Assembly: GCA_905178155.1 (NCBI GenBank) | Contig: CAJINV010000007.1 | Coordinates: 814,627 to 878,626, forward strand | Reading direction: 5' to 3' | DNA length: 64,000 bases | Source of the DNA: Amoebophrya sp. A120 | Taxonomy: Eukaryota; Protista; Dinoflagellata | Part shown: positions 5,328-50,268 of the stretch, one piece after another | How positions within the stretch are numbered: position 1 is the first letter of the stretch | Layout of the letters: every line of letters starts with the position of its first letter | Notes under the pieces: model-generated | The model's input: only the letters and a program-made list of their open reading frames with translations | Told to the model about the DNA's origin: nothing | Database searches by the model: none | Made by a program: the position numbers and the translations under genes

Positions 5328-5457
5328 TTCCAACACTCGACGTGAGTCGTATTTTTTCTTCAATCGAAAAATGAAAGAAGTCATACTCTCGGAGCAAAAT
5401 TTCTCCACGGAGTCACAAACTATTCGCGCTGGCGCGTTTACTACAGTGCCTAAGGTG

Positions 5458-6008: not shown

Positions 6009-6161
6009 GCTAAGCTCTCGCGCCTCGACAGCTCCGGTTGTCGCCTCGTGTCGCTGAGATCATCAGTCTCTCTCTTATTCGCGACTGAGGTTGTTTTAGG
6101 GCGAGCCCGACGTGCCGGCAAATGGGCAACATAACGAATCGATCTTTTCATAGTGATCAAA
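6009..6161 (+). repeat. Split direct repeat copy B2 (element 3' end)
   Basis: Identical to 5458-5610. Confidence 0.95.
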
Positions 6162-12767: not shown

Positions 12768-15700
12768 ATGGTGGCAGCCAATATGGCGTTCTCAAACGTT
12801 ACATTCTCAACTGTTACACGAATTTGCAATGCAAGAATAGCAAAAGTCAAAGGAGGAAGGCTGCACCTCTAGCATTACAAACTCCGCACAGATTTAGGTG
12901 CTTTTTAGCCCTTCGCAAATTTGTCATGCAAAGCAGTTTGCTCGTATGGATCTTGATGGTAGTTTTGCATGACAAATTCATGTAACAGCTGAGAATGTAA
13001 CGTTTGAGAGCGCCATAGCCAATCACAGCAACGCTGCCGGCGATTGGAACAACGCGTCCAAGTGGGGGCCTCCTAACAAAGCGGCGAACAACAAGTGGAA
13101 AAGCAGCAAGAATGCTGGCGACCACAACTCCAACTGGAACAGTAGCACCGGGAACAATGGTGCAACGTGGGGAAACAACAACAATAACTGGAAAAACAAC
13201 AAGAAGAATTGGAACAAAAACAACGCGAATCATCAAAAGGCGAACTGGAACAACGGTGCTAGTGGTTACAACGACGGGATGCATAATTACAACAGCGGAG
13301 GTGGTTCATGGGGACAGGACCAACAGCAGGGATGGAGCAACGGTCACCAAGGTATGATGGCGGGTCAGGATCAGCAGGGAGGTCCTGCTGGGTACAGCAA
13401 TGGATACGGTGGCAGCAATGGTTCTTACAACAACCAACAATACGATCAACAGCACCACCAGATGGGTACTAACACGACGGCGTCCGGTGCTGATTACAGC
13501 CAGCAGATGCAGTACGGACAAGAGCAGCATCAAAACGGTAATATGATGGACCATGGACACGGACAGTACAGCCAGCAACAGCAATACAACCTCCAGCAAG
13601 TAGATCCGTACAATCCCATGAGCGGCAACGTGGACCAGATGTACAGCCAGCAACAAAATATCACACAGAAAAAAGCTGGCAGGGCATATTTGTAATGCAA
13701 AAATAAATACACAAAAAAATCTGTATTGCATATCCGAAACAGCATGCTATGGGGCCACCCATGACAACTTTTTCTGTGTATTTATTTTTGCATTACAAAT
13801 ACAAATATGCCCCGCCAGCTTTTTTCTCTGGGATACAAAACGGATCGTACAATCACGAGACGAGTTCCATGATGCACCAGCAGCACCAGCAGAACAACAT
13901 GCAGCCAGAAGTTTACAACAACAGCAACGGGGCACCAGCTAGTCATGGCCGGGACGATGTGCCCCCCGTCGGCATGATGCCAGCTGCGGGCATGCATTCC
14001 GACAGTCAGAGTAATCAGGGTCCCTCCCTCTCGGACCAACTACGGGAACAGCTGATGCAGCAATTAAAGAAGACCCAACAAGAAGCGGCGGCTGTAAATC
14101 ATCTTCGTGAGGGTCAAGCGAATAAAAGCTCCGAGAAGCGGCGCCCGCGGGGAACAAGGGTATAGGATTTTGGCGATGGAGATATACTGCCTGTCATGCA
14201 GGAGAACTGCGGTGAAGGTGATTTAGGTTTTATAAAGTGCTAGCTCGTCATGCATCTGCATGCATGATTGTTCATTAAATTATCAAAATCAATATCATAT
14301 ACAAGAATGTCGTTACTACAGAACACCCCTGCGACGCCGATCTCGTCAAACACTTCGCCGTTGAAACCGGTCGCGTTGGAAATAGATCCCGACGAACCGG
14401 AGCTGAAGGTATGATATGATAAAACTACAAGAAGAGCGTGTGTTTGTGATGCATAACAGGTACAGGAACTGCCGGCGTATTACTATCTAAACTGCAGCAG
14501 CTGGTCAAAAATGCAGGCGAGGGGTATGTTCGGGGGTATGTTCGGGGGTGTGTCAGGGGTATGCAAATGGCCGTCAATCACGGGCGGATTACAATTTTTT
14601 GGCGAAAAAGCAACAGGTGGGGTATAAACATACCCCAGACACACCCCAGACACACCCCAGACATACCCCAGACAGACCCCCGAACACACCCCAGGCAAAA
14701 AGTCCGAACATACCCCAGACACACCCCGGACACACCCCGGGCAGACTTTCCGACACACCCCGGGCAGACTTTCGGACACACCCCGGACACACTTTGGGAC
14801 CTCGCCACGCGAGATGTGCAATGGCGGGCTCCAGTTTGTCACGCGAGCCGCCACCCTGTCGAGCTTCCCGGGCCCCGTTGGCAAGGCCCAGGGACGAAAG
14901 GCGCCCTCGGTCAGCGCGGGGACCCGGTCCCCGTGTCATGACCTGGGGGCCAGATTTGGGCGCTTCCCGGACACCGTACGGCCCAGGGGCAAAAGCCCTA
15001 GGTCAGCGCGGGGACTCGGTCCCCGCGTCATGACCTAGGGGCCAGCTATGGGCGCTTACATCCCGGAAACCAACCGCATGGCCCAGGAACAAAAGCCCTA
15101 GGTCAGCGCGGGGACTCGGTCCCCGCGTCATGACCTAGGGGCCAGCTTTGGGCGCTTCCCGGAAACTAACCGCACGGCCCAGCCAGGGGCAAAAGCCCTA
15201 GGCCAGCGCGGGGACTCGGTCCCCGCGGGGCCAGCTTTGGGCGCTTCCCGGAAACTAACCGCACGGCCCAGGGGCAAAGCCCTAGGCCAGCGCGGGGACC
15301 CGGTCCCCGCGCGCGTCATGACCTAGGGGCCAGCTTTGGGCGCTTCCCGGATGGAAACTAACCGCATTACCGAGGAGCAAAAGCCCTACCTAGGGCAGCG
15401 CGGGGACTCGGTCCCCGCGTCATGACCTAGGGGCCAGCTTTGGGCGCTTCCCGGAAACTAACCGCATTGCCGAGGCGCAAAAGCCCTAGGTCAGCGCGGG
15501 GACTCGGTCCCCGCGTCATGACCTAGGGACCAGCTTTGGGCGCTTCCCGGAAACTAACCGCATGGCCGAGGCGCAAAAGCCCTAGGTCAGCGCGGGGACT
15601 CGGTCCCCGCGAGCGTCATGACCGAGGGGCCAGCTTTGGGCGCTTCCCGGAAACTAACCGCATGGCCGAGGCGCAAAAGCCCTAGGTCAGCGCGGGGACT

Positions 15701-18700
15701 CGGTCCCCGCGAGCGTCATGACCGAGGGGCCAGCTTTGGGCGCTTCCCGGAAACTAACCGCATGGCCGAGGCGCAAAAGCCCTAGGTCAGCGCGGGGACT
15801 CGGTCCCCGCGTCATAACGTAGGGGCCAGCTTTGGGCGTTTCATTCCCGGAAACTAGCCGCACGGCCCAGGGGCAAAAGCCCTAGGTCAGCGCGGGGACT
15901 CGGTCCCCGCGTCATGACCTAGGGGCCAGCTGCAGACCCGGCGCCAGCTTCTTCCTTTCTGTTTTCTTTGTTCGCGGTAGGTTAACGGGTCTAGTGTGGG
16001 CAAGCAGAGGGGCTCCGTCCGCAGATCTGTCGCGGATCAGGGGACGCAGCCCACACAGAAACACCGGGCTGCAGGGGTCTGCCTGCCCAGTGCCACCACA
16101 ACCCCCGAACTCGTCCCAGACAAATGCCGGAAGGTCGCCGCACGGGGACTCTGTCCCCGTGCTCGGACCTTGTTTCTCATGCAAAATCTTATTCTTTCAA
16201 AACAAAGCCTTCTGATAGTGATACTAGTACTACCGAGAAGGAATTTTGTTTTGTAGATGAACTACCTGCTATCCACGAACTTCTCTCACGACAGACTCCC
16301 GGGGGTCCGGAAAACCAGAAAAGCAGCATCCATCGTCCGAAAAGTAGCAAGTTCCTGAAATCTGACGACAAGTCTGACGATAACTCCACCAACAGCAAAA
16401 AATCTCGGGTTTGCACGCCGCCGCTCCCTATGGATTTCAAAAATGTCTGGGTCTGGAAGATTGTGATTGTCAGATTTGTCATGCAGCTTTTCCATGATTC
16501 ATGAGGTCTGGAATGCAGGACCTAGCATCACAGATTTTTAGGGGGCCTCCTGATGCCTAGTCCGCATGACGAATGCCCTCTCCACGTAGCACAAGGTGGA
16601 CTCTTCTTGCTGTCCACGTAGCACAAGCGGGTGTCCACCTAGGGTATTGGCAGAGGCTAAATCTGTTCTAACGCCACGGTATTGGCAGAGGCTAAATCTG
16701 TTCTAACGCCACCCTGACAGGAGTCAAATGTCAAAGCGATACGATGCACGTAGCACAAGCTGGACTCTTCTTGCTGGTCATGCAACACAGATCTTTTTAG
16801 AATCCAAAAGCAGCATCACAAGTTGCAACCTTCCAGACCCAGACATATTTGCATTTGATACTCCCCCCAAATAGTACTTCTAATTCACATTCGGACAATA
16901 AAAACAACAAAACATCTTCCAGTCTGCTTTCCGGCGCGAATTCTTTATTCGCGGGCAGTCCAGGAGGAGTGGAAGGCACGAATTTGAATCCGCTGTTAGC
17001 CGCTGCGGCGGGTGCGGGCGGCGCTGGAGGTGGGGCGAGTAGTGGAGCAGGAGCAGCTGCTGGTGCTCCGGGTTCTTCGAATCCTGCTTTATCAAATGCA
17101 AAAATGTCTGGGTCTGGAATGTTGCCGGGTTTGTCTTTGTCGTGCATATTTTGCATGACCCAGGATGTCTGTAATACAGGACCTAGCATCACAGATTTTT
17201 AGAGGGCTTCCTGGTGCCTATTCCGCATGAAAAATGCCCTCCCCGCGTAACACAAACTAGACTCCTCTTGCTGATCATGCAATACAGATTTTTTTGGAAT
17301 CCAAAGCTAGCATCACAAGCTCCAACCTTCCAGACCCAGAGATGTATGCGCTTGATACGCTTTGTCCGCGTATGACCAGATGTTCAACGACCTCCTCGGG
17401 TTCTACACTGCGAACCCAAGTTTGATCCCCGGCTTCCCCGGAGGTTTACCTGGTGCAGCAGCTCCGGGAGCAGGAATGATTCCCGGAGCAGCTCCCGCTG
17501 GTTTGCTGCCGGGTCTGGCCGGGTTACCTGGGTTGCCCGGAGCTGCAGGACCGCTCGGGGTTCCAATGCCGGGGTTTCCAATGGTGCCGGGCTTGGGTGG
17601 TTTTCCAGGGCTCCCAGGAACTGCGGGGTTGCCTGGCGCTATCCCCGGATTTCCGGACCCGACGGCCCTGTTTCCAGGATTGGATTATGGGAAAATTCTG
17701 GGCGAGACCTGGGGTGCAGCGGGATTGACTTTGGTATAGTTGTTTCTTCCCATAGTACTTTGATGCATCTTGAGCATGACAGAAGATCTCGATGTGGTCG
17801 TGTTTGGTGAACTTGCTGCTTGTCCAGTACTTGTCGATGCGAAGAACTTAAATGTTAATATATCTGAAATCACCGGTTGTACAACATGATCTCCAAAACA
17901 GCCCCCGCCGTTCGACGGCTCGGTTACCTTCGACGAGTGGATGGCACAGTATGGGACTCTCAAATGTTACATTCTCAACTGTTACACGATTTGTCATGCA
18001 AAATTGCCATCAGTATCTGCATGATCAAGCTGCTGCGCATGACAAACGGCAAACAGGCTGAGAATCTGTGCCAAATCTGTCATGCAAGACGCGCAAGGTC
18101 CCCCTTTTCACGTTTGCCGTTCTTGCATCACAAATTCATTTAACAGCTGACAGTGTAACGTTTGAGAATGCCATACACAGGCGGCTTTCGCCGGAGCTGG
18201 TGGTTTTCCCGGAGCTGGAGGACCAAAGGTTGCTGGTGGCCCTTTTTCCGCCCCCGGAAGTGGACTGATGGGCGGTGCAAAAGGTGGGAAATTTGGCGGC
18301 GGCGGTGCACCAGACGGTTGGTGGAATTCGATCGGGAAACACGGAAGCAGTAGTAGTGGTGGTCCTACATCCACCACAAACGAGTCCGAGCGTCCCCCGC
18401 CCACCTCCTGGTACGCGAATAAAAACGGGAAAGGTGTTGCAACCAACAACCCAGTATGCATTGCAAAAGTATCGTATTCGTATAAATGCATCACAAATTT
18501 CCTCAGCATGAGAATAGAAGTTGTAATGCGGATTTGACTTAACGAAAAGATTTGTAATGCATGATTGCAATACGAGTACGACGCTTTTGCACAGGATACC
18601 CAGACTCCACAAACAAGCCCGGTGCGCATGGGAAGAACAACCCGGAGGCGTACCAGAAGATGATGCGCGAGTGGTACCAGTCGTGGGATCCGACCGGAAA

Positions 18701-21700
18701 GTGGTACGGACTTATCAAAAGCAAAAGTGTCTGGGTCTGGAAGAATGCAAGGTTTGCCATGCATGTTTTGCACGACCCATGATGCCAGTGGTGCATGGCC
18801 TAGCATCAGAGACCTTAAGAAGGCTCTCTGATGCTTATTCCGCATGACAAATGCCCTCCCCGCGCAGCACAAAGAAACTTGACTCCTCTTGCTGGTCATG
18901 CAATGCAAGTCGTCTTAATCTTAAATGAATCCAAATCCAGCATCACAAGTTGCAACCTTCCAGACCCAGACATATTTGCAATTCATAGGACTGCACAAGG
19001 GGCCGAAGGGGTCGGGATTTACGCTATCATCCGGAAAGGGTAACATGTTGAACAAGGACATAAATGGCGGGAGTAGTATTCTGGCTGCGGGAAATACCCA
19101 AGAAAAAAACATTGTAGGTGTAACTTTTTTGGAGGAACAGCATTACAAATTTGTCTGGTATGACAGCAAAAACCTGTCATGCGCAGATAGTACGTGAAAA
19201 CGCCCTTTCGTGTACCCCACGATGCATGCCAAGCATGACAGACGCAATCATCTTGCATGTTAAGCATCACAAATTTACACTAACAGCGTTTTTTTCTAGG
19301 ATAGGAAAGGAGAGTAACAGCAACTGGTCGAAGGAAGAATGGGCGGAGTGGATGAGCAAGTACTACGCGTTTTACCAGAATTATGCAAAGAAAAAAGTGA
19401 TGTTACAGGTACACACTGTGCTGCAGACCCAGCAATAGAGACAACCTCTCTCCTGCCGCATAGGCATAAAAGGCTTTTTTCGTACGTGTTTTCCCTTAGG
19501 ATTTCTGCATTGCAGGTTTATTTCTCTGTAAAAATGTAGAGCAAGTTTGTGTTGCTGAAGTTTTAAAACAAATGTGTCACTGTAACACTGTTTTCTTGGG
19601 ATAAAAATCAGCAGGGGATCAAGGGCGGAAAATTGATGAAAGGAGCTCCGTTAGAAATGATGCTCGGAGGTGGAACTGGCGCTTCTTCTACAACTGGGAA
19701 AGGAAAAGAGTACAACATTAACTTTGACGACGACGAATCTGACGCGGATAGCACCAGCAGCGACGGTAAGAACGACTCTGTGTCCAACACGGACAGCAAA
19801 AAACGCGAATCGGACGGAGAGGGCGAAGATCTTGATACGAAATTATCACGAGAAAAAAGTGTTACAGTTACACATTTGTTGGAGTTTCTGCATCACAAAT
19901 TTTCTCTGTGTGGCAGAGAAAACTTGTAATGCGAAGATCATAAGGGAAAACAGGAAGGAAACGAAGCTCCGAAGCATTTCCTGCATGAGAAAGGTTGTCT
20001 CTGTTGCCAGTCTCGCATGACAATGTGTAACTGTAACACTTTTTTCCTGCGATAGAAATTGGATGCCAGCGAAGATGACGAGAATGATCAAGACACAAGT
20101 AATATCACACGAAAAAGTGTTAACGTGAACGGAATTTGTAATGCAGTAATGCATCGCAAAACGTGCCCAGATGTGTCATGCATAGCATGCATATTGGGCT
20201 ACATTTGTGATGCATGATTGCAATCTGTGGAAACCGTTAACCTTAACACTTTTTCTTCTGATAAGTAAAAACATCAAGCGGGAGAAAAAACTGTCGAAAG
20301 GATCCACCATGGCACTGTCTTCGGGCTCTTGTACTTCTACCTCGTACTATGCGGACGAGCAGGGAGAGTTCCACAAAAACTCTGGCTCGTCCAATCATGC
20401 GGAACCGATCCCGAAAACGCCGGAGTTCCTCGCAGCGGAAGGGGGAGGAGTTGGTATGGACAATCACAATCAGCACGTTGCAAAGCAGAAAATAATAAAC
20501 GGTGGTGTCGAAGAACATCAGAACAAATCCTCCACGACTTCCGGAAACATTAAACGGATCAGCGGTTCGTTTTTATCATCCGGCAAGAATCTAGCGCCGC
20601 CTCCGGGCTTAACGAACGAGGACGAACTCGCCGAGGTTCTGGGTGTAGCTGACGGTGTCGGTGAAACCGACCACATCAAGCAGATGAACAAAACTTTCTC
20701 GGCAGCTTCGAACACCACGACAATGACAAAAACCATCTCCACTACCTCCGATAATTCATCCTCTTCCTCGGAGCAGCCCTTAGTCGCAGCGAGCAAAAAC
20801 ACGTTTTACGACAAATTTTCCGGGGGGAAAGACGAACCGAAGCCGTTGAAGGAGAAGGTTTTTGACTTTCAGAAGAAGGAGCTGACGCACGGGTTGCGGT
20901 TTTACTACTTGTTGGAGGAAAGGATGCAAGCGTATGAGGCGAAATACCAGGTGCAGTGGGATCTGAAGGTATCAAATGCAAATATGTCTGGGTCTGGAGA
21001 GTTGGAACCTGTCATGCCAGCTCGACATTTTTCCTGAGAGATCTGTATTGCATAACCAACAAAAGTGGCAGCCATTTTTGTCATGCAAAAACACAGTTTC
21101 TCATGCGGAGTACGTATGAGAAAGCGTTCTGGAAAGTTGTCATGCTGGGCTGCCTTCGAAATGGTTTCTATCATCCACATTTTAGCATCACAAGTTTCCA
21201 GACCCAGACATATTTGCATTCGATAGAAGGACCCGAAGGACAAGACGTTGCAGGAGAAGGTGTTCCTGCATTTGCTATCCTTCGTCACGAACTGCTGGAT
21301 ATCAAATGCAAATATGTCTGGGTCTGGGAGATTGCGAGACTTGTCATGCTAGTCTTGCATGACGCTGAGCTCTGTATTGCGTGGCCGCAAAGATGAGCTC
21401 CTCTTGCCTGTCATGTTGCAAAAACGCAGTTTCTAATGCGGAGTAAGTACGCAACTCAGAACCACGGAAAAACTTGTCATGCTTGGCAGTGCAGTACAGT
21501 GTGCTCATTCTTGTTCCCTGACTTGCATCACAAGTTTCCAGACTCAGACATATTTGCAATGCATACTGGAGTAGTGACAAAACGCAGTGCTCCTCCGCGT
21601 TGATCTTTTGGAAGGTGGTGCAGTATCCTGTGCAAAAGTATCGTACTCGTATTGCAGTCATGCATTACAAATCCTTTTCTTCAGGTCAATCCGCATTACA

Positions 21701-24700
21701 AATTTTATCTCTCATGCTGGGCAAACTTGTAATGCACTTATACGAATACGATACTTTTGCAATGCATATGCAGGACGTTTTCGCGATGCTGAAATACTAC
21801 GGGGTGAAACCGTTCACGAAGGTATAATTAGACGTCGGTGCTTCTGGAAACATATGCGATTTGCGGTTTGTCATGCACATTTCAGAACAAAAAAATAAAA
21901 AAATCAGTTTTTCTCCATGGCTGCTGCGGGATACGAGAAATTCGTTTCTAAGTCCGAAGTATCCTGTGCAAAAGTATCGTACTCGCAGTAATTGCATTTA
22001 TGCATTTATTAATCCTTGGAAATATCCATATCTAGCTGCATATTTGCAAAATGTAGCGAAAGGCAACCCGCTACCGGGCCTGCCATGTTCATCTTTCACG
22101 CCCGCGCCCGACGTTTTCGCGTCAGCGAGTTGCTGGGGAGTCGAGCGGAAGCCGGAGGTTCATTCTCTGGCACCGCTGGCGCAGTTAGTAGATAGCGAAT
22201 ACATCCTAGCGCTACCCCTTTGGCGAAGGGTCAGCCGAACGGATATGCGGCTGCACCAGAGCCGCGCGAATCCAGGCGCGCTGATTGTTTGCAATTCTGG
22301 AACTGGGCCAAACGCAGCGGCTGTAGCGCGCCGCAACTGGCTGCAGCCTCTCAATAGTGGCGGTCGGCAACTCTTTTTAGCGACCGGCGTGGCGCGTCTT
22401 CTTGCAATTTTAGGATGCGGAAAAGCAGGCCGCCAGCATTCGCCAAAGCCGGGGGCCATTCGTGAAAAGCCTCCAGGTGGTCTCCCGGCCAGCGCGCATG
22501 CACCCAAAAAGCGCAGCAAATCCGAGGAAAGCACCTCCACCGAGCGCTAGCCCACCGCGCAACATGCCTAGTAGCTGTATTTCGCTGAGCATGTCCCGCT
22601 GCTCCAGAAACTCTTGGCCGTACTTCAGCCAGGTCGCAAAGCAACCGCCCACGGTTCCGGTGCGATCGGGAAATACTGTCAGGCATCTTGGGTTCGCATA
22701 AAGATGTCGCATGAAGACCAATACCCCAAACAAATACCCCTTGAAGGGGGTACTTGCTGGGGGTATTCGTCATCGTTGTGCACCGAGCTGAGTCCAAAAA
22801 TCCCGGGGGGTATTGATGGGGGTATTCGTACGGGGTATTGCTTTGGGGTATCGCGTTGGGGTATTGCTTTGGGGTATGCGTTTTCGCATTGGGTGAGCTT
22901 GGCGAAGGTGAAACGCGAGCGGGAAATTTCCATCATTGCAAAATCCCAATTTGTGTTTCACCCAAACCCGAGCGGGGAATTTCCATCATTGCAAATTGTA
23001 GCTTGCCTCTCACCCAAACCCGAGCGGGGAATTTCCATCATTGCAAATTGTAGCTTGCCTCTCACCCAAACCCGAGCGGGGAATTTCCATCATTGCAAAA
23101 TGGCGAGCGTCAATACTTTCAACTCCCCACACCGTCTGACTTCCAAACCCGAGGATTTGGCGGATGGCTGGTCGCCTCGCCAACTCCTACGCGCGCGGAG
23201 ACACATCCAGACGAAGCCTGGGCGCACCCTCGCGCCCAGGCTTCGTTCGGGTGTAGAAGGTGCGCAACACAGGGGCGCCGCACGGCAGGCGGCTCCACAC
23301 GAAAGTCAGAGCGCTGCTCCTGGCCTCGCCTGCAGCCCCACTCCCCTCTCCCTTTGGCTTCCCGGAAGGCCTCGGTCTTCGGCACTTTCCTTTGGCCAGT
23401 CCGGAAAACCGAGCTGGGAATTTCCATCATAGCAAAATGCAGAAAATGGCTTACAACGACACCTTCTGACGCCCTTTCCCGCACTTTCAGTGGAGCGGCA
23501 AAAGGAAGCACGAGAAGGAAGGCTGGCAGACCGCCGGTCAGCTGCCAAAAGCTGCTGCTGCGAGTCCTCTACATTTTGCAAATATGCGCACAAATATGGA
23601 AATTTTCAACGACTAAATTTACAAATTTCTTTCTCAAGGCAAATCAGCATTACAAATTCAATTTGTAATGCTGAGGAAATTTGTAATGCGATTTCTACGT
23701 AGTGCGATGCTTTTGCATTCGATACGAAGCGAAATCTGTGGAGCACTTCATCGAATTGGAAAAAATGTTATGCACTACAAATTTCCGGTGCATGTACAAA
23801 ATGCATCACAAATGTCACCAACTTGGAGCATGCCACTTGTCATGCTGAATAGAATTGAAAGAAAGTTTTGTCATGCGGAAACCGCATACGTTTACGTACA
23901 TGATGTGCAGGAAATTTACTGTGGATAGATGTTTTACGAAATTTGCCCACCAAACGCCACCCTGCTGAATGCGCATTTGGACTCGGCTTTCATCCGGCTC
24001 ATGATGATTTTCGGGGACGAACTACTGGCGACCCGGAACGAGTCCGGATATGATCTATCAAACGGAAAAATCCCCCCTCCCCATATCGAAATGGAAATCT
24101 GTGATGCAGGATTTGAGGTACCAAATCGACTTGTCATGCTAGAAGGCCAAGCGCCGCAGTCGTGGTCTCGTTTGCAGGCAATTTGTCATGCTGTTTCCCA
24201 CTCTCAGCTGCCTCCTATCATGCTGAAGATGCAAGGCTCCCCCACGCCACCCAGCACTACAGTCCGCATCTTTTCCCGTGTAGCATGACAAAGCTGATTT
24301 GTGACAACAAATCTGCATCACAGATTTCCGCTTTGATATGGGGAGGGGGGATTTTTCCTTTTGATATGATCAGGCCTTTCACTTGATCATCCGGCGGAGG
24401 CGCGAGTACAAGCTATGCCTTGCAAAACTATCACACTCGTAGCAATTGCAATCGCAGCTAGTTCGCATGACAAATCTCCATCGGAAAGCTAAATCGGCAT
24501 GACAAATCCACTCGATATGCTGAGCAAGTTTGTCATGCAATTCTTACTACGTGTGCGTACTTCTGCAATGCATACAAGCCGTACAGTTACAATTACCGGT
24601 ACATTTTTCTGCTCTATCAAGTATCCCACGAAAAAAATGTTACAGTTACACATTTGTAGTCAATTCAGCAACACAAATTTCTCTGCATGAGAGAGAAAAC

Positions 24701-30559: not shown

Positions 30560-33500
30560 GTGCGAGTGGCCACAGTGGTCTCCGCAGCTAGCTACCACCT
30601 GTGGACAAAGCAAGCAGGGCAAGGCGAAGCCATTGCTGAACGAAGACGAAACTGCAAACACCTACAATTCAGTGGTGACAGACTACAACTGGAGCAGCTG
30701 CTCTTCGCAGAAGTAGAGCAGACTACAGTAAACCGCAATCAAGAAGATGTCGTCCGCATCAATAAATGGAATTTTCGCCGCGAGCGGCGAAAACCCCTAC
30801 ACGGGAATCATGTCCGGCGACCCAGACAGGACGTGGCAGAGGAATCTGAAAAGCGCGGATATGGCGTATAGAACTTGTTTTCATACTACTTAGTACGTAA
30901 AACTAAAAGTTTATTCAGGATAAACGACCATGGTACGCCAGCCTGCCTCGCATGGCAAATCGATCTACTTCAAATCTACTATATCACCAGCACAACCACA
31001 TCAAAAAAACAGCCGCCTCTCCCTGACGAAACGAAGGCTCTACGACAAGTCAGACCCACGATACGCGGCACAGTATATGCGATTGAAGCTGCACAGCAGA
31101 CAAGCCAGGTCTAGCCGAAGCGTCGAGTCGGCGCAGTCATCGCTGTACGATTTAGACGCCTCCTATGGATGTGTCAGGATCGAAATCGACAAAATCGAAA
31201 AATTTGTGATGCGTAAAATGTGGGGCACTGAAGGCCTGTGTTGGGGTTGGGGAGCATGCAAATGAGACCGATTGTAAGCCTGTTCAGGGGTACACAATGT
31301 GCTGCCAGAGTAGCACTACAGGAGGAGTCTTCTTTGCCCAAACAGCATGACAGACTGGATTTGGGTATTCCCGAAATTAATATTTACATTGCTTGACTTC
31401 CAGGTTCTGGTAACGCATACCCCTGGCGACAGGTGGCCTCGACAGGTGACCTCGACAGGTGACCTCGACAGGTGACCTTGACAGGTGACCGCGACAGGTG
31501 AACGCCCTGCCTTGCCCCACTAGTGCCTCGCGCACTAAGCCACTATGCGCGCGCCTGGTGTGAGGCGAGGGGCGGACGCTGCCCGCCCCGATGCCGAACA
31601 CCCTCTCCCACTAGCGCCACTAGGGACGGGCACAAGGCCCCAGCGTGGGGACCCTGTCCCCACGCTCGGGTGGGCCTTGTTTGTCATGCGCCACTTGGAA
31701 ACTGAGGCTTCAATTGACTTCGATTTTATGCGTCACAAATTTTTCGATTTTGTCCATTTTGATTCTGACACTTCCATACCTCAGACACGGAATGGAGCAA
31801 AAACCCCATGCACAGGTGTATCCTGTGCACAAGTATCGTACTCGTACGTTGTAATTGCAGGCATGCACGACAAATCTGATTTTCAAGGTAGAATAGCATG
31901 ACAAATTTAATTTTTCACGCTGAAAAATTTTTTAATCCGATTCATACTAACGTGTTAGTACGGTACTTTTGCAATGCATAAGGTGGAGCAGAAAACGATA
32001 CTCCAGCTTCTGGCCGCACGAACACACGCTCAGGTTGGAGCATCATGCGAACAGGTAATGAGTCGTAGAGCGTGGTTCTGAACAGAGCGATGGTTTTTGT
32101 TGCATGTTGACCTGCATGTTGAGGAGAGGCGAATGCGTTTGATGTTTTTGTTTTGCGTCAGTAGTTGGTTCTGGCTCACAAAAATGTACACCATCACAGC
32201 CTCCGATTCCCCGAGGCCAACAAACCCTCGATGGTGCAGAACAACGCGAATCACAATGCCCCGGAGATTATGAACTGCAAATATGTTATCTGGGTCTGGA
32301 AGAATGCAACTTGTGATGCTGTCTTTGGATTCTAAAAAAATCTGTATTGCTTGAGTGACCAGTAAGAGGAGTCCAGTTTGTGCTATGTGGAGAGGGCATT
32401 TCTCCTGCGGTATCGGAATCAGGAAGCCCACTAAAAATCTGTGATGCTGGGTCATGCATTACAGGCGTCATGGGTCAGGCACAATATGCACGACAAACCT
32501 TGCAATCTTCCAGACCCAGACATTATATATGCAATGCATAGAGATGATTCCTGAGGATTGGTCGCCACGAGACAGTACCTTCTCCGGCACGGGGTGGCAC
32601 CGCAAGTCGATAACGAGGGGTGGGGAGTACAGCCCGAACAGCAAAACGGGGAAATTAGAAGCGTTTAAGGTGTCCCCGCGAAGCCCGCACCACAAGAACT
32701 TACACCAGGAAATCCACGGAGACGCGTACGCGAGCGACATGAGCGGGCTGATAAATGTGAATGAGTCGGACGTATCCTGTTGTGAACCAAAAGTACGTAG
32801 TATCGCACAATCGTGGTTCTGCATGACAGAGTTTCTTTCTGTAGCGAAACCTGCATGACATACTCGATGTTTTTTTGTTTCCAAGAAATTAAAATTTGTG
32901 ATGCAAAATTATCTACGTACTGTGCGATAAAGTACAAGTTTGGCAAGTGCATAGGACGACCTGCGGAACGACTTTAGTCAAGATTTCTCTATGCAAGGAA
33001 AAAACTGTGTATAGTGTATACTTTATTGTTGTGCAGGCCGCGTTGCAATACAGTTACACTTGTCATGCTGGACGTGCATCAGAGGCTATTTTCATACGTC
33101 TTTTCGCGTACTTGCTACGCATGACAGGTTTTCTCTGTCATGCAAAGCAAATCTGTAATGCTGTTCCTGCAAAAAAGTTACTCTTACACGCTTTTTTTCT
33201 TGGATATTCTCCCAGTTTAGTTCCATGTACGACCCGGGGGAGATGCAGAATATGGCCTTCAGTGTCGGAGTGGGGACGACGGGGGTATAGATAAAAGAAG
33301 AAATTCGCTTTTATGCATGACAAAAGCGGTATTTACTGCAGAACCCCGCATGACAAATCGAACATACAAAATCATATCAGCGCGGCTCCCGCGGCTACCT
33401 AGTGAGCAGAACGGCGGACCGAAGACCACAGACCACGCCGATTTTAGCTTCGAACAACGGGAGGTCAGTCAGGGTATCGAGAAACGTACAGTTCCAGGGC

Positions 33501-35553
33501 AGTTACGTGAACAACAGGACAAGGTATAGCGGATGTTTGTCTTGTTTGTTTGTCATGCGTACAGAGAAGCAGCGCTCCTGTTTGTCATGCATGATTATGA
33601 TGATGAGCGCATTTGAAGCGTAAATATAGTTGACTGCTATCACAGACCAACCGCCTCGCGCTTTAACGCCCCAGGATTCGACTTCGGCACCGCGTACGAC
33701 AAGGCGGGCTTCAGCGGCTACCGAGCGGGTATGCATTGCAAAAATGTCTGGGTCTCAAAACTTGTGATGCTAAATGGCCATCATGATTGACTGTGCCCTT
33801 AAGTGCAGTGCAGCATGACAAATTTTTCATCAAACGCTCTGTCGTGCGCAGGACGCATTACAACCTGCGTTTTTGCATGACGAAAGTGGGGTGCTTTATT
33901 TGCTGCTTATGCAACACAGTTTTTTTTTCCAGACCCAGACATATTTGCATTTGATAGCGGGGAATTACCCGTCTACCTCCGATATTGACGGGAACGACGC
34001 TCATGGTCACATTTACGACAGGAAAGAGATGTTGAAACTCGACAATGCTGTTAGGAACAAAAACGTCTCCGGACACGAGTGGGGCAGGAAACGCGGAAAT
34101 TGGTTCGAAAGGAGGGTAAACGTGGTGGACCACGCCTACAACGGGATGTGGCCGGAGGTATAATTTTTTTACCGATAATTTTTGTTTTTGCATGGCATTC
34201 GCAATAAACCAGTCTTGCAGCTGTTCTGCCATCAACCAGCATGACACGAGTAGATTGTCGAAACTTATCCACTTCTTGGTATTTGTAATACAGGATTGGT
34301 CTCCCGTCGGGAAACTTTCCGCCATGCAGAAACAGCACCGCGAGGTAGAGATGAACAACGAGAGGAGAATATCCTCGGTAAAAACGTCCCCACCTCATAG
34401 TCAAGATGGGAAATCTGCTAGACAAATCTACCTACTTAGGGTGTTGCGCATGACAAGATCGGCGTCGTGCTGTCATCCTGTTTACCTCGTTCACAAGCAT
34501 CACAAATCTAGCGCACCATGCTGATTGGAGCATTTATAAATTCCAAAACGCGACTAGAGGATGAATACCTGTCATGGGGCTCCGCATGAGAAACATTTTG
34601 GGCATGCGTTTCCGCATGACAACGAACTCTGGGGTGGGGACGTCTTTACTCAGGATTGAGAAAACGAGCCAACGACGCTTTGTGGGAGAAAACCATGCGA
34701 AGACTCCGCGAAACGCGCATGTACGACGATTTTCACTCCTCCAAATTCTACAAGCGAAGCAACAAAGCAATGCAAAGATCCCTCACCATCGACATTCCCA
34801 CCGCCGGCGACAAATATGCAGGAACGCTTTTGCGACCGATGGAGAGCGGCAATCCAGTATTAGCATCATCTTCTTCACCAGTGGTAAATAAAGCCGGTGG
34901 AGGAGGTGGACCCCCGTTGACAAAAGACTCCGACTATACCAATGGACCGCTAATGCCATCTTCCACTCACGCTGGCGGGAAAACAACGGACTGCGAATCA
35001 GTTTTCTCCATGAACCCACAGCACAACCGGAGTCAGCAGCTATCCGATATCCATTGCAAATACGTCTGGATCTGGAAAGGTTGAACCTGTATTGCGTGTA
35101 TCGCATTCCAAAAAAATCTGTATTGCAGCAACAAGAAAAGGGCCGCACTTTCGTCATGCAAAATGGCAGTTGGTAATGCGTGCTGCGCATGAGAGAGCGT
35201 TTGAAAAATTTGTCATGCTGCGCCGCACTTCAAGGCGCGCTCAATCATGACCATTCGGCATTACAAGTTTCCAGACCCAGACGTATTTGCATTTGATATC
35301 CGACACGAGCAAACAATTATCCAACGTCGACGGAGGGGAGAATTTGAACAGTCCAAACAGGAGCCCGAACACCAGGCAGAGGGAAGCGCAGCAACAGATG
35401 ACGGCGATCATGCAGAGTCAGGGATCGGGGAACTTCCCGAATTTGTCAGAAACGAGTAGGGACTCATCTGCTCTGTTCCGGGCAGTAAACAGCCCGGCGC
35501 GATTGTCGAAAGAGCCCCTCAATGTGGCCAGGTCACAGACGATTGTGATGTAA
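30560..35553 (+). CDS. Hypothetical protein, multi-exon (start uncertain)
   Basis: Frame continuous after removing 8 introners and GT-AG introns (30866-30941, 32034-32199, 33285-33380, ~33524-33645, 34158-34293). Confidence 0.6.
31164..31778. mobile_element. Introner family A with nested Helitron-like insert
   Basis: DR CCTCC/CCTCA. Confidence 0.88.
31377..31679 (+). mobile_element. Mini Helitron-like element nested in an introner
   Basis: Removal restores cccgaaa|tttgtcatgc as in the sister copy near 60597; no TSD; 11-bp stem hairpin then CTTG; 13-bp tandem repeats. Confidence 0.75.
31819..31980. mobile_element. Introner family F
   Basis: DR AGGTG. Confidence 0.9.
32269..32540. mobile_element. 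Introner family B
   Basis: DR GAGAT. Confidence 0.9.
32773..32953. mobile_element. Introner, F-related
   Basis: DR GGACG. Confidence 0.85.
32990..33206. mobile_element. Introner family G
   Basis: DR TTCTC. Confidence 0.88.
33730..33956. mobile_element. Introner family B
   Basis: DR GCGGG. Confidence 0.9.
34370..34657. mobile_element. Introner family J (TATCCTGAGTAAAAACGT)
   Basis: DR GAGAA; ends ATT. Confidence 0.88.
35048..35298. mobile_element. Introner family B
   Basis: DR TCCGA. Confidence 0.9.
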
Positions 35554-39268: not shown

Positions 39269-42200
39269 ATGAGCGTCTACCTCATCACGCTTCCTTCCTG
39301 CCTGGTCCTGGCGTTCTCCGGCATCTGCCTCAGCATCGCCCGGGCCTCGGAGATCTACCTGTGGGCGATCAAGGACCTGCACTTTTTTATGCATCACAAA
39401 AGTGTAAATCGTAGTCGTCCCCGAGGACCCGATAATACATAGGAGTAATTGGAATTGCATCTTCAACAGAAATTTTGATCGAAGCCAGGAAATTGTCACG
39501 CGGAACCAGCTAGCAAAGAAATGCAAAACACAGCTGTCGCCTGTCACTGTCATGATTGCAATTAGTACGAGCACGACCGCCACCGCGATAGTACACTTTT
39601 GCAATGCATACTCCCCTTTTTCACGGCGTTCACCACGTTCTTCATGCTCTTTTTCCTCGCCCACGCACTGGGACAACAGGGTGGAAGTGAAAAAATCAGC
39701 AAGGAACGAACTACATCAAAAGCAAAAAATAAAACAACGAAAATAACTGCAGCAACTGCAACGACGAGCAGAATGACGACTACGCAGGTTTTCCTTCTCC
39801 TAAGCGCAGCAACCACCTGCAGTGTGCTGTTTTTCTCGCACAAGCTCTTCGATGAGCCGTTGTTGCAAGAATTTCTGGAGGAATACAACGCTACGACAAA
39901 TAAAAGACTGGCGGGCAAGACCGTTCTCATCACAGGCGCGAACTCCGGGGTCGGTTTGGAGTCTGCGATCTGGGCAAGTTCGGAACTGGGGAATGCGAAA
40001 ACTGTTTTTCTAGGCACCAGGAACGTGCAGAAGTGCGAGGAGGCAAAGAGAAAGATTCTGGAGCGTTTGGTGCCTGGGGACAAAAAATTAGATCAAGACT
40101 ATTTTATTGCACCTCCCGGTCGGAGTTTTGATACAGCTACAGCTTCTGGTGCCGCGACAGTATTGACAACTCCATCGGAAGCTGCCGCTCTGTATCCACA
40201 GGAAATTTGTTTTTGTTCCCGTACACGTATACAAACCAGCTGTCTGCATGATAGAACTTTTCTTCAATCGTATTCACATTCAGCAGGATGTTGACAAGTG
40301 GCACGCACTATTAAGTCAGCGAACAATAAATTTGTGACGCGCTACTTTGTATGTTATACGTGTGGACGGGATCATGAACAAATTTGTATTGCATACCCTG
40401 AAGGAAAAAATCGGAGACCGCTTAAAGTGCTTCAACTTCGAACTGATTCCGATTGACAAGCAGAAAATCGAATTGGAAATCAAGAAAACGCTCGAGAAAA
40501 CGAACGTATCAAATGAAAAAAATGTCTGGGTCTGGAAGAGTCATGCTGTTTCTGCATGACACAGAAGGTGTGGCATGGAAGCACTAGCATCACAGGTTTC
40601 GACAAGCTTCCGCAATGCTGAATCCGCATGACGAAGCCCTCATTTTGGTGACAGAAAGTGAGCAGCTTTTGCTGCCTATGCATCAGAGATTTTTGTGTGT
40701 TCTGAAATGCGCATCACAAGTTGCATTCTTCCAGACCCAGACATTTTTACACTTGATAGGGCGTAAAAGTCGACATTTTAGTTTCCAATGCGGGCTTCGC
40801 CGGAGGAAGGAATCACCACGCCATGTACATTTCGCACAAAATTTTGCAAACTCTGTTGAAAATGAAGTCCAACCGGAACCTGAAAACCGTCACCGTCTCC
40901 AGCATGACCGCCTGGCTGTTTTGCGCGCTTCCCTCGGTGTACTTTCACTACAGCATTTTGCAGCCATTTGTGCGAAATTTCGTGGACGGCATGTGCGGCG
41001 TGGCGGCGGAGGAAATCAAGAATTTGAAAGCGAAGGGACTCGATGTTCAACTACCGGTGTTCTATCCGCGCGTGAAATTCTATGAGAGTGCACAGCTTCC
41101 ACCTGTCCCCTTCATTTGTATAGCATGATGAACAGCAATAGAAGCGTCAGCAAGAGTGGCGGTTTTGCATGACAGATTTACACAGGAGTGTAGAAGTACT
41201 GCTTGGGCTGCTGGCAGAATTTGTCGTGCAAACCGTGCGAAGAAGCACAGGCTGGATTTGGTATTTTGCATGACAAATGAGGGGGGCGGGGAGTAGTTGT
41301 GCACTCTGATAAATTCTGGCAAGTTCTCGGAGGTGACACCGAGGACGAGATCGCGGTTCCGCTTGCGTTTGTACGCACGAGCATAAACCTATGGAACTGT
41401 CAGGATTGAAATCGACAAAGTTGAAATAACTTGTAATGCATAAAACGGATACCAGTTAGACCTACAGTTTGTAGTCGGCGCATGACAAATTTTCCCGGTC
41501 CTGGAAGCGAGTCTGTCATGCGGTTTAGGGCAAAGGAGCTGCCTTCTGTCATGCTAGTCAGCAGTCCAACTTTTGACCCTTTCCAGGACTATAATCTGCC
41601 TCCCGTGCGTCCTCTGCAATAGATTCAGTTTTTGTATCGCATTTTATGCATGACAAATCATTTCAACTCTGACGATTTCAAACCTGATACATCCATAAAA
41701 CCCCGGGCTGATGGATAGTTTCCTGGGCGAGAACTTCATGCGGACGGCGAAAATTGGCGCCCTGCCGATCGTGAAAGCGGTGCTCATGCTCGCGGAGGAG
41801 CCGAACGCAACCACGGGGAAAAGTCGTGCTGTGGTGGACAAGAAAATGGACGAAGAAAGACTAGAACCTGGAAAAACAAACTCCGTCCAAGAACAGAAAC
41901 AACTACCGGACACCAGCACTACTAGGGCCTCCACGGTTGGGAGGGAGCCGACCTTATGAACTGCAAAAGTATCGCACTCGTATAAATGCATTACAAATTT
42001 CCTCAGCATGAGAAAAAAAATCTGTAATGCGGATTTACCTTGGAAGAAAGATTTGTAATGCATGTTTGCAATTACTACGAGTGCGATACTTTTGCACAGG
42101 ATAGACCTGTGTGCACCATGATTTATCCGTCACGAACTACTTATCAAATACAAAAGTGTCTGGGTCCGGAAGCGGGTACACTCGTCATGCAGGTTTTCCA

Positions 42201-43406: not shown

Positions 43407-46400
43407 ATGCCACTGTTTCATATTTCGATTCTTTTTTCTTGGTTGGTGCGCATTTTCACCAGCTTCAAATGGCGACGCAAGAAGCTGCTGCTCAAGAACA
43501 CCACCGCGTCAAGAAATCGACAGCGGCGCGTCCTGGTGTCGTGGCCAGTGCAATTTTTCATACAGCACATGGTGGCGACACTGATGTTTTTGACAGCAAT
43601 TATTATGCTGTTGACCACGACCGGGACGCTTTTCCTCACGAAGACGTCGTGGCGTAATAATGCATCAACTCCGCGACGAGGACCTTGGGCCGCGAGGACC
43701 TCCGATGACGTGGAGGACTACAGCCTGATTTTCAGCACAACAACGTACTCGACGCGCCGGACTACAAGAAGTACAACAGTTGATGCGGGGGCAGCCGCAG
43801 CTCCTCGTCCTGGCGAGGTCGTAGTGGACATGAGAACTAGAAGGCCTACATCAGACGCACCTGCTCTGGTAGTAAAAACCACGACACGAGATGAACAACT
43901 ACAAGAACAAAGATCAGCCGCTTTTTTTGTCCACGGTATCGCTTTTGTGAAGAGGAGAAATTCTAGAGGACGCAGCAACACAAAGGACGTGAGCGGGAGT
44001 TTTGAAGTAGATGCTGATCATGTAGTTGTTGGCGGTCCACACGAGGACTACATGAACGGCATCTCGTCGTCCACCTCCCCGTCGTGGAGTTTGTCCCCAG
44101 TAAGAACTACACCCGCAATTTTTACGTCCGTGGAAGTACTAGATCCTGTTGATCTTCCCAGGACGAGGAGTTCTACTACACGGAAGACGGATTCACTGTT
44201 TCCACGACCCAGCAGGAGTTCATCTACTTCTACATCTACTTCCGCCTTCGGACAAAAAGCTGAAGACGTTGCTGCGTCCCTGGTTCCTGAAGTTGTTGAT
44301 GTAGGAGCCCCGACATCGAAAAGTAGAGCCAGAACTTCTGTGAGCTTTTCGCTTTCATCCTTTGCAGAAAGAACAACAGGGGAAGATGAACAACAACAAA
44401 CAGGGACCAATGAAAGGACAAATGCTGACGTCGACAAAGGCAGGAAGCTGCCAGAGAGGAAGAACGCAGCAACAGGAGGTGGGACACCAGAAGCGACCCA
44501 TCAAAGGACCACAGCAAGAACACCTTCGACCGACGCCACAGAGAAGATAAAAGACAAAGACAAACCCGAAGCAAATAAAAAAGATAGCACAACATCAAGA
44601 AGCAGGCTGGTGGGCGAAGATGAAGGTAATCAGCAAAGTACTATTGTCAAAAGAACCAGCTACCCGACCGAGTGGAACCGTTCGCCAAATGAGGAAGACT
44701 ATCCGCCGCTCGTCGTCCCTGCTAAGGTGGACCTCCAGCAAGGTGCTATGGGTAGCAGCAACTACCCGGACGAGGGCGAGGGCTATGAGGACCTTCTGGG
44801 AGCCCCCTACCTGAGAAAACTGTTGCTGCTGCCAGAGTTGGAAAGAGCGACACGGCATCCAGCTCTGTTTTTTTCGAAAGAATTGGTTCTCGCCCCGGCG
44901 TATCAAGTGCAAATATGTTGACTGGGTCTACTTCACATCTGGAGGATTGCTAGGCTTGTTGTTATGCGCGGTCTTTCTTATGACTACGCCCCTTCAGGGT
45001 TGGCGTTTCTTCGTAAGAAATGGAATGCTAATGCAGCAGCTAGCACGACAGGTTCTGTCTCTGTGTTGAGGTTCTTACCATGCCTAATATCGATATCCCT
45101 CTTCTGCATGATGAGAAACCCCTCCTCAACTTGGTCAAAAGTTAGTACAAACTGTTGGGAAAAATCGTGCAAGACAGATTCATCAGACTCTTGTGTGCTA
45201 ACCCACGAGCTGCACAGGACGGCGCATCACAAGGTTGCCAGACCCAGACATGTTTGCGAAGCATACGCAGAGGGAAATTTCCAACACGACGCGAGAGGAC
45301 CCCGGACGGGAAATCGCTGTCCGTGTGGGAGACGTGGTGCCTATGCAATTATACAAACCTGGATGTCCCGTACTGCTTGTACAGAATTATCATGATGCAA
45401 CATTGCCAATGATAGATGTAGTTGTAGTACAAGTACTCGTTGTAGCTGCCATATGAGGGAGGTTCTACTTGGAGAAACGTTTTGTCATGTCCCGATCAAT
45501 ATCTTCCATGATTCAATGAAGATGCTGAGATGATGAAACAAGCCCCGCATTTGAAGAGGCGCTCGCCGTACGGGACATCACGGTTTCCCGAGGACAGCGC
45601 AAGCAGACGAAGTCGGTCCGACGCAACAAGGTGAGAAGAAGAAGGAAGTTGTTAGTTTGTTCCTGTTTTCCAAAGCGGAAGCCGACTTTTTGCAAAACCG
45701 AGTCCCGTATCAAATGCAAAAGTGTCTGGGTCTGGAAGGTTGGAACTTGTGATGCCAACTTTGGACTCTAAAAAAATCTGTATTGCATGACCAGCAAGAG
45801 GGGTCTAGTTTGTGCTACGCGGGGAGGGCATTATTTGTCATGCGGAGTAGGCATCAGGAAGCCCTCTAAAAATCTGTGATGCTAGGTCGTGCATTACAGA
45901 CATCCTGAGTCATGCAAAACATGCATGACAAGTCTCAGAAGCTTCCAGACCCAGACATTTTTGCATTTGATATCTCGGAGCGGGGCCGGCGCTCGCCCGA
46001 CTATGACCAGTTTCGGTATGGAGTCGTCAGACGTTACATTCTCAACTGTAGTTGCGTGAATTTGTAATCGTAAGAATGTGAATGACATCAAAAGTGAAAG
46101 GGGGAAGATTGCGCCTTTTGCATCAATACAGGCTTGGCGCAGATTGCTATCTAGCGCGTCGACAACTTGTCACGCGAAGCAGCTTGATCGTGTCGATATT
46201 GTTACTGATGGAAATTCTCCATGACCAATGCACGCAACAGTTGAGAATGTAACGCTTATGAATTTCATATCCGGAGTTTTCTAGGTGGAAAAACGCAGCT
46301 GCTGTTGGGTATTGTGAAAGCCTGGAGCCCCCACAGAAACACTGCGGAGGGGAAAACGGGATTCTCGGCTGAGTCCGTGATCAACGGGAGAGCGCGAATA

Positions 46401-48656: not shown

Positions 48657-48955
48657 ATTTCTACTCCTAGTATCTCAAAAATTTCGTTCAGTGCGCATCG
48701 ACACTCGACCAGAAGGGCGAATCGATAAGATAGAAAAGGTGCGCGTTTGTACTAGTGTTATTTTGCATGTGCTTTCTTCAGCATGAGGCGCGCAGCTGCT
48801 GTGGTGCCTAAGTACTCATCTGGAATGAGTACAAAAAACTGCTAGTGCCGCTTCCAAACGTGATTGCAATATACAGAAAAAAGAATTGTCGAAGATGTTT
48901 GTCTTTCTCTTTGTCTTTGTCCCTACACCGCGACCACCACCTGAGCGGGCCATAA

Positions 48956-49556
48956 GTGTCGCAAGGAGTAGACCCAGACGAAGCCCCTCCTCCTGGTCGT
49001 AAGAACGCAGCTGTCAACAGCCGCTTTTCTTCCGGATTTGTTGTTAACCTCGTCTTGCTTGACATGCTGCAGCTTCCGTTGCGCCTCACGTTTTTGCTCC
49101 CAGAGCAAACTGATGTTGCACCACGACGACCCCGAGAACAAACGGGCACGGGTTTGAAAGTGGGAGAGCAAGAAGCTCGTCATCTTCTACTTCCAGAAGA
49201 AGCTAATGCAACTGCTGATTTCTCTAAAAAGGGAAGATCTTCGACACCAACGCACTACCGGCATGATGAAGAGTCATCTTTTCCTGCTGCTGTGGTGAAG
49301 CAACAAACTACCCTAAGTCTAGCCCGTGCACAACTCGGAGTAGAGGTCGCGCGTGAAGATATATTGCGTCGGGAGGTGCAGGTGCGCGCGGGCCGCGTGA
49401 CAGTTAGTGCAGCATCTTCTTCTATTGTTCATCTTGGGCCGCGGGACATCGACTTCCACGACCAGGCGCGTAGCAACCTGCAGCTGAGCCATCATGATGC
49501 CGACAACAAAGTTCGGCGTTGTAAAGTGCTGTATTTTGAGAATCTAATGGAACCCG
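48956..49556 (+). CDS. Probable internal exon
   Basis: ~200-codon ORF ending at introner 49557; 5' boundary unresolved. Confidence 0.4.
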
Positions 49557-49835
49557 TATCCTGAGTAAAAACGTACCCACACCAGAGTCAGGATGGGGAT
49601 TTTGCAACACAAACCTAGGAGTTTTGTGAGTCACGCATGACAAGTTTCAGTCCGTAAGGTAGTGCAAGTTAGCAAGGAAAGCAGCATCACAAATCGACCT
49701 TCTGATCCTGTTTACAGCATTACAAGTTCCCAAACACGATTGAAAATGCCTGTCATGGGGTTGCGCATCACAAATGTTCCTGTCATGGCAAATCTGCATG
49801 ACAACTCTGGGGTGGGTACGTTTTTACTCAGGATA
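49557..49835. mobile_element. Introner family J
   Basis: TIRs near-perfect; ACCCG repeat displaced by 3 nt on the right. Confidence 0.85.
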
Positions 49836-50268
49836 AAAACCCGACGTCGATCATCACGCGCCGGTCGTACAGGGCGCAAAGCCTACCTCTGCAGGCCCTC
49901 CCGATTTCTTTGAGACCTGGCTGGGCGCTCGGTGGACCCTCGATATCAAACGCAATAATAGAGTCATCGAATCGACTGGGGGGCCGTAGTGGTTCTCGGG
50001 AAGATTTTTGTAAGAGGAGCATAATGCTGCAAACTTGTTGTCAACATCTTGATCATCTTCATCCGCATGTAGTTTGTAGAACACGTCGACACAAATTGTA
50101 TCAGTCATGCATGGATGAAAGTCAAAGTAAGTTCCGTTGCTCATTTCTTTTATGTCGCCAAGGGCACCAAGGGACTAAAAACTTTTCGCGTTGCGGAAAG
50201 CGGTGATGTTGTAATATGCTAGGCATTGAACAACTTCTCAACATCAATAATGAAAACGTCTGAATAAG

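Follow-up and report, generated by a model that had tools for sequence, protein, structure and literature searches.

A fixed excision border for the inverted-repeat introners of Amoebophrya sp. A120 and its bearing on GT-AG introns

In the marine parasite Amoebophrya sp. A120, transposon-derived introner elements left the transcript at a fixed border wherever a junction could be resolved, 1 nt before the TAT and 4 nt after the ATA of their terminal inverted repeats (TIRs), the intron being N+TAT...ATA+4 nt; we hold this conclusion with high confidence. The DNA analysed, hereafter the window, is a stretch of 64,000 nt, and its source was confirmed as A120 by the exons of two genes, which were 100% identical to the deposited proteins P0001 and P0004.

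The introner elements of strains A120 and A25 were published by Farhat et al. 2021 (PMC7789003), who reported inverted repeats beginning with TAT, direct repeats (DRs) of 3-5 nt, element families and RNA-supported removal. Non-canonical introns make up about 60% of the A120 total, and the accessible parts of that account leave borders and mechanism open: splice sites were termed variable, the border was given as unknown (Fig. 3 legend) and no required bases were named. The predominant donor classes in its Table S4 are all NT (9/9 per strain), which fits the present register, but aligner bias could produce the same picture. The same parts report IR/DR at 15% of canonical A120 introns, no cognate transposase in A120, and a spliceosome in which U1 was not found in A25 or A120 and most other parts were present. 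For the same organism and elements, the present analysis fixes the border, singles out +2U, +3A and A(-7), and describes an aged intermediate. Introner elements of A120 and the ageing of introners in fungi were already known; no earlier fixing of the A120 border was found in the accessible parts of a mainly open-access literature, including PMC12130899, PMC11282704, PMC12005148 and PMC11453091. A fixed border turns apparent splice-site diversity into random target-site bases and allows the exact annotation of some 30,000 repeated introns.

Transcript junctions and the splice register

The window was crowded with TAT...ATA inverted-repeat elements bearing 5-nt DRs. Elements such as 20970 and 39388 possessed a terminal inverted repeat starting with TAT (mean 16.6 of 20 matches), and the bordering DR matched at 5/5 positions in 44/54 window elements and 353/467 elements of a sister lineage (see below). 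Ten families had at least five members, and removal from RNA was seen at no fewer than 22 joints. An Rfam search gave no match within the window and no snRNA there, and the TAT...ATA repeat pattern had no match in viral contigs.

The joints came from assembled contigs of one study, presumed to be RNA, a presumption supported by their spliced joins and by zero depth across the long intron; three raw-read RNA runs (X9-X11) contributed 1, 4 and 60 matched reads and no junctions. At least 30 joints were listed, comprising 22 at repeat elements, five at GT-AG introns and three short-sided ones from other copies, which were dropped. With k as the number of upstream DR bases retained in the exon, k=4 was the sole value that fitted all 22 repeat-element junctions among the joints listed (k=3 fitted 18 and k=5 fitted 17). 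Three joints, from two genes and two runs, were unable to slide (both=0), and all three gave k=4. The informative elements were as follows, with mismatched DR bases taken from the genome assembly.

39387..39614, + strand: introner with a broken DR (TTTTT/CTCCC, displaced 6 nt), ends TT..CC, terminal stem; joint 39386 to 39615, both=0
48579..48958, + strand: introner with no remaining DR (GTTTC/AGTGT), ends CT..TG; joint 48578 to 48959, both=0
49556..49839, + strand: introner with a DR displaced 3 nt, ends GT..AA; joint 49555 to 49840, both=0
44900..45269, + strand: introner, DR CGGCG/CGCAG, cut after DR base 4 or 5; joint 44899 to 45270, both=1
31163..31782, + strand: introner, DR CCTCC/CCTCA, cut no later than DR base 4; joint 31158 to 31779, both=4
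45341..45600, + strand: degenerate introner ending in ACA (substitution at -6, A-7 retained), cut after DR base 2-4; joint 45338 to 45599
20969..21229, + strand: introner with TAT at 20970, ATA at 21225 and DR GAAGG/GAAGG, GT..AG at the true register

The element at 49557 had an intact DR 3 nt further out, which the cut ignored, and the element at 44901 had an AG one base past the cut, which was not used; the cut therefore follows the terminal repeat. Of 17 elements whose DRs matched poorly, six had a displaced copy, and in five of these the displacement was 3 or 6 nt (p=0.018; the six include the two window elements with displaced DRs listed above). The fixed cut removes exactly one 5-nt target duplication, and it accounts for small in-frame insertions beside an element entering protein.

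The earlier note had proposed this same register, to be checked at mismatched DRs, and the three joints that cannot slide bear it out. It had also foreseen that introner 20970 becomes GT..AG if cut after DR base 4, as indeed it does, with GAAGG on both sides. The argument that it gave for the register fared less evenly: the enrichment of introner motifs in GT-AG introns holds, whereas one acceptor on which it relied was mis-called and the ATA that it expected before canonical acceptors was not enriched (both below). The register also exposes aligner GT..AG calls at other offsets as artefacts; 7/19 possible GT-AG readings in 436 sister elements lay away from it. Introner 31818-31984 would be read by an aligner as GT..AG at cut +2, and is GT..GT at the true register.

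Protected bases at the element ends

A pattern scan of one other assembly yielded 134 loci (734 kb) with elements of the same families. One of these loci, L134, is the ortholog of window positions 20687-21281 at 90% identity, and the other assembly is therefore treated as a sister lineage. L134 shares introner 20970 with intact ends, of which the left was selected by the pattern and the right was not. A presence/absence polymorphism was observed beside it: at L134 positions 1-19 the right end of a sister introner, the only end seen, is followed by ATGAA, and the window (20684-20688) has a single ATGAA as the empty site.

By the coding score of their flanks only, a procedure that was correct for 56/56 window elements, 467 of 527 sister elements were oriented. 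The 436 with a DR match of at least 4/5 were kept. Elements in an advanced state of decay escape detection, whichever arm is affected. On the 5' arm, +2 had changed once, +3 once and +4 twelve times; on the 3' arm, -5 had changed eleven times, -6 three times and -7 twice. The outer base was thus protected on the left arm (+2 against its mirror -5, 1 vs 11) and the third base on the right arm (-7 against its mirror +4, 2 vs 12), an asymmetry with a Fisher p of 2e-4 for outer versus third base and binomial values of 0.006 and 0.013. Because transposon constraint alone would be symmetric, this asymmetry goes beyond it, and a strand mutation bias is argued against by the opposite directions in which the two positions shift. 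TIR positions 4-16 showed no arm asymmetry in the same 436 elements.

The statement that the +2 U is always kept proved nearly literal (T in 435/436). The A at -7 was not absolute, as the two changed elements show. Position +3 was conserved on both arms, and +3A may also have a role in splicing. The register names three bases and one branch candidate. At +5, C predominated (C 278, G 135 and A 2 of 436), and no base preference was found at +1 or at -4 to -1 in the sister elements. GT-AG introners were not enriched (12/436; 9.6 expected). In 467 elements, the 83 single DR mismatches were spread evenly across the five positions (16, 19, 13, 19 and 16). A preference of mismatches for position 1, suggested by 5/8 cases in the window, was dropped on this evidence.

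GT-AG introns and the probable ageing of introners

Nine GT-AG introns without terminal repeats were found in the three modelled multi-intron genes of the window and mago. Five had direct transcript joints (spliced contigs, run X2), and all nine agreed with the deposited proteins P0001 and P0004. They are listed here with one adjoining exon.

14160..14321, + strand: GT-AG intron, GTATAG...ACAG, motif present; transcript joint
14409..16294, + strand: GT-AG intron, GTATGA...ACAG, 1886 nt, tandem repeats inside; transcript joint
17734..17901, + strand: GT-AG intron, GTATAG...ACAG, motif present; transcript joint
21822..21907, + strand: focal GT-AG intron, GTATAA...TCAG, 86 nt; exon length, motif-blind model and P0001
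21908..21958, + strand: coding exon holding the 'ata-cgag' at 21931-21937; its encoded residues are present in P0001
30866..31012, + strand: GT-AG intron, GTATAG...ACAG; joint with both=0, P0004
32055..32199, + strand: GT-AG intron, GTAATG donor; transcript joint, P0004
33285..33380, + strand: GT-AG intron, alone in having ATA at -7..-5, with the GCATGACAA motif twice; P0004 and the A25 ortholog frame
33524..33645, + strand: GT-AG intron, GTATAG...ACAG, motifs present; P0004 and P0005
34158..34293, + strand: GT-AG intron, GTATAA...ACAG; P0004

The donor was GTAT in 8/9, in agreement with the earlier observation that most GT-AG introns here start with GTAT; the exception, 32055 (GTAAT), had been absent from that list. 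The acceptor at 33380, read earlier as ata-tcag, was likewise right by P0004 and the frame of the A25 ortholog, and an alternative of the motif-blind model (acceptor 33406 with donor 33502) was discarded on P0004 and P0005. In P0005, the A25 counterpart, the protein sequence is conserved over the sites of all five introns at 30866, 32055, 33285, 33524 and 34158. The intron at 34158 lies in the exon context GGAG|G, which would have given a GT..AG introner at birth. The 1886-nt intron contained tandem repeats of 11 nt and about 100 nt, and the 100-nt unit also occurred in sister locus L050 at about 82%.

The focal intron, 21822-21907, had been assigned an end at 21937 in an 'ata-cgag' acceptor. 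From 20965 to 25618, a spliced contig held 1103 exon nt; acceptor 21907 yields this same length, 1103, whereas 21937 yields 1073, and only 21907 makes the full transcript match (6643). P0001 contained the ten extra residues predicted by 21907, and the motif-blind gene model, knowing only GT and AG, likewise chose it. The end at 21937 is therefore wrong, and 'ata-cgag' is coding sequence. Among the joints listed there is no direct joint for this intron, and its acceptor rests on exon-length arithmetic, the gene model and P0001. In borders it is a canonical U2-type intron, with a GT donor and a YAG acceptor in use. It carried TTTGTCATGC at 21867-21876, an instance of the internal motif described below. 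Its ends matched at 10/20 positions (null 6.0 +/- 2.1; joint highest of eight), its fold had no end-to-end terminal stem (z +1.59), its flanks matched at 2/5 DR positions and AAA stood at -7..-5. Its best score against introner families was 4.4 bits (own control maximum 7.1), with the motif region alone matching.

An ATA at -7..-5 of canonical acceptors, whose enrichment the earlier note had predicted, was present in 1/9 window introns (33380 alone). In the sister lineage, 55 GTA..CAG introns, predicted from sequence and drawn from 305 predictions of which 219 were without a repeat match, had it in 2/55, and in 0/39 among GTAT donors, no more than chance; the prediction thus failed, which is one of the outcomes that the note itself had named as counting against it. 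The intron model had placed 6/8 short window acceptors correctly. An A at -7 occurred in 9/9 window acceptors, like the protected A of introners, but this was found post hoc and may be chance. It was discarded as a rule for all canonical introns, since it stood in 24/55 sister introns (background level) and in 3/11 of those carrying the motif.

The internal motif gave a different result. In the 1062 nt of the eight short window GT-AG introns, a count that leaves out the 1886-nt intron, TGTCATGC or its complement occurred eight times (0.2 expected) and was present in 6/8 introns, so that the claim that GT-AG introns retain introner motifs stands far above chance. The density was 7.5 per kb, vs 4.8-5.6 per kb in introners, with one match in 8617 nt of intergenic DNA and about 0.2 per kb in ORFs. 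Among the predicted sister introns the motif was present in 10/26 with GTAT vs 1/29 with other donors (p=0.0016), in 8/24 vs 1/29 after two mis-called introners were removed (p=0.007), and in 7/23 GTAT introns when a nested insertion was also dropped (p=0.016); 44/55 were without it. A role of TGTCATGC as a strand-specific branch site was ruled out, as both orientations occur (4:5, 11:8 and 409:403).

Donors converged on GTATAG/GTATAA in seven window introns (14160, 17734, 21822, 30866, 33285, 33524 and 34158) and in sister loci L009, L023, L028, L045, L049 and L060. Position +5 was A in 7/8 GTAT donors vs 2/436 repeats. These donors, unlike the TATC/TATG of the repeats, possibly form a pairing site for a divergent U1 or for U6.

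One predicted sister-lineage intron had the features expected of an aged introner. The 140-nt GTATAG..TCAG intron at L060, minus strand, 8389-8528, lies in a cullin gene and matched an introner at 91% over 91 nt (75.6 bits vs a control maximum of 24.5). Its homology ran along the intron, its TAT aligned with the family's end in register, both repeats had decayed, and its GT-AG borders lay at the insertion site. The junction was gapless against A25 cullin (tblastn), which places the acceptor at the insertion site; a first reading, with the acceptor inside the old repeat, was dropped for the same reason. The exon context ACTG|G implies G..CTG at birth, so that a single change, at -2, was required.

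In the window's nine GT-AG introns, by comparison, introner-family homology never exceeded 11.3 bits, no terminal-repeat remnant was detected (end complementarity 5-10/20 vs null 6.0 +/- 2.1) and no DR remnant was found. Introners that are GT-AG at the true register kept their repeats (16.6 vs 16.7 of 20, p=0.68), and mismatched DRs showed no drift to the canonical G/C/A/G bases (25 towards, 25 away). The claim that introners mature into canonical introns as their TIRs decay therefore stands in part: L060 and the GTAT-linked motif speak for it, and the lack of TIR, DR and family homology in the nine, of drift to AG and of faster repeat decay speaks against it. The route was seen once in about 53 introns. 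Ageing looks real in at least this case, and it is likely that a minority of introners age into ordinary GT-AG introns; for the window's introns and as a general rule it is unproven. L060 shows a way for introners to become permanent ordinary introns. In sister locus L040 (minus strand, 10751-11147), an introner was nested in a predicted 397-nt GT-AG intron of what is presumably an RNA-binding-type gene.

Proposed mechanism, rival readings and known systems

We favour, with moderate confidence, a reading in which introners leave the transcript as N-UAU...AUA-NNNN, with both cuts at constant distances from the TIR and set neither by the DR nor by GT/AG. In this reading, a modified spliceosome lacking U1 likely does the cutting and recognises +2U, +3A and A(-7), and the GT-AG introns are likely old introns plus a minority of aged introners. 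That excision needs neither GT nor AG is itself likely. A terminal hairpin would bring the intron ends together, with 1-nt and 4-nt overhangs; a terminal stem was found at introner ends, and the whole-fold z was only -1.33. A(-7) may be the branch nucleotide, from which the 3' cut would be counted, so that AG would not be needed, and the chemistry would be that of a spliceosome without U1. Short, fixed branch-to-acceptor distances occur in Giardia and Trichomonas. Ageing could begin with an element that has G at both +1 and -1 from birth and is one change away from GT-AG; the repeats and A(-7) could then decay and the donor drift to GTATA, and the internal TGTCATGC motif would persist longest. 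Only tentatively do we extend this to a U1-independent and AG-independent code, N-U-A...A-N6, in which the repeat supplies the donor (+2U, +3A) and the branch point (A-7), the position of the 3' cut is measured from that branch, and elements that by chance are GT..AG exit the code, lose their repeats and become GTATA-type canonical introns. If this code were true, the genome would display the full route from transposon to ordinary intron.

That the exact junctions are artefacts of DR assembly errors or of contig building is very improbable. The joints do come from contigs of one study and the flanks from the assembly alone, but errors would be needed only at +1 and -4 to -1 in ten separate elements, the listed contig pieces have 0 other letters, the independent assembly contains many DRs broken in this way (83 single mismatches in 467), and the arm asymmetry is independent of RNA. 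With the register accepted, excision might still be non-spliceosomal, by a nuclease and a ligase acting at fixed distances from an RNA stem, as proposed for Euglena. We regard this as rather unlikely. In its favour, introner ends have no GT, no AG and no +5 G (C 278, G 135 of 436); on the other side, NTAT is common to canonical and introner donors, and the protected +2U, +3A and A near the 3' end are the bases that a spliceosome reads. The literature also cuts both ways, in the parts accessible: U1 is missing (PMC7789003) and in Euglena a paired motif is flanked by spacers of constant length, 3 and 5-6 nt (PMC12501133), whereas a conserved U2 spliceosome removes the non-GT/AG introns of tunicates (PMC13326754).

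The share of aged introners admits two extremes around our preferred reading. The strong form of the claim in the earlier note, in which all or most GTAT-AG introns are aged introners of an older wave with ends decayed beyond recognition, draws on a motif density equal to that of introners and tied to GTAT donors, the one clear intermediate (L060), the A at -7 in 9/9 window introns, and a canonical share of 24.8% among strain-specific A120 intron positions (reported in the accessible parts of PMC7789003). We think it quite unlikely, since ATA(-7) stood at 1/9 and 2/55 with no repeat or DR remnant, the exon +1 was G in only 1/9 window GT-AG introns, the DRs showed no net drift to G/C/A/G, and 44/55 predicted sister introns lacked the motif. 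The same parts of PMC7789003 also give positions common to A25 as 19.4% of A120 introns, 98.6% of them canonical vs 35% overall. This last figure, that conserved positions are canonical, also favours the opposite extreme of no ageing of note, in which the GT-AG introns are old, GTAT is a donor consensus mimicked by the repeats, and the motif comes from nested insertions or is a functional intron signal. The introner nested at L040 and donors that run on as GTATA/GTATT, unlike the repeats, agree with it. It is nonetheless fairly improbable: L060 is introner-derived along its length with its ends in register, intergenic DNA, as safe for insertions, is almost free of the motif, and only 1/29 non-GTAT introns carry it.

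The nonconventional introns of Euglena follow the code N3-CDG...CHG-N5-6, after which a purine stands (Nomura et al. 2025, PMC12501133, accessible parts). Like these, A120 introners lack GT-AG, have paired ends, are cut at a constant spacing from the paired end motif (1 nt and 4 nt), and share DRs that blur the border and a proposed MITE origin. Unlike them, A120 introners follow N1-TAT...ATA-N4, with long family-specific repeats and a true 5-nt duplication; they have neither the CDG/CHG motif nor the spacers of 3 and 5-6 nt, and the purine start is not followed (exon +1 A/G only 56%). Fungal introner-like elements degenerate into regular spliceosomal introns (PMC3609843 and PMC4457414, accessible parts). 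The repetition and ageing are shared with A120, but the fungal elements are spliceosomal from the start, whereas an A120 element has to exchange a code measured from its repeats for GT-AG. As in Fritillaria and tunicates (PMC13326754), the majority of introns depart from GT-AG, and the genome has machinery of the U2 type; unlike A120, those animals conserve U1, and 'inverted repeat' and 'MITE' are absent from the main text as accessible. The introners of Aureococcus, Micromonas and Polarella share the TIR and the target duplication of which one copy is spliced out, but keep canonical splice motifs (PMC7789003 and PMC12130899, accessible parts), in contrast with the 12/436 of A120.

Several other features of the window were observed. 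Long ORFs that lack introns (273 and 1050 aa) occupied positions 1-5330, and a duplication came after them, with its repeats near 5457-5620 and 6010-6165; we take this region to resemble a tyrosine-recombinase retrotransposon from its motifs, and Pfam gave no match for 2502-5324. Between two genes, 28700-30000 was GC-rich (59%), with almost no contig cover and no Rfam match. The Mago nashi gene (PF02792, 36864-38010) had about 60 extra N-terminal residues and two introners. The introner at 21959-23728 was 1770 nt long, with intact ends and DR and a large internal insert, and by length arithmetic it was removed in the transcript. Moreover, an element at 50269-50530 was nested inside another at 49944-50701, each with its own perfect DR.
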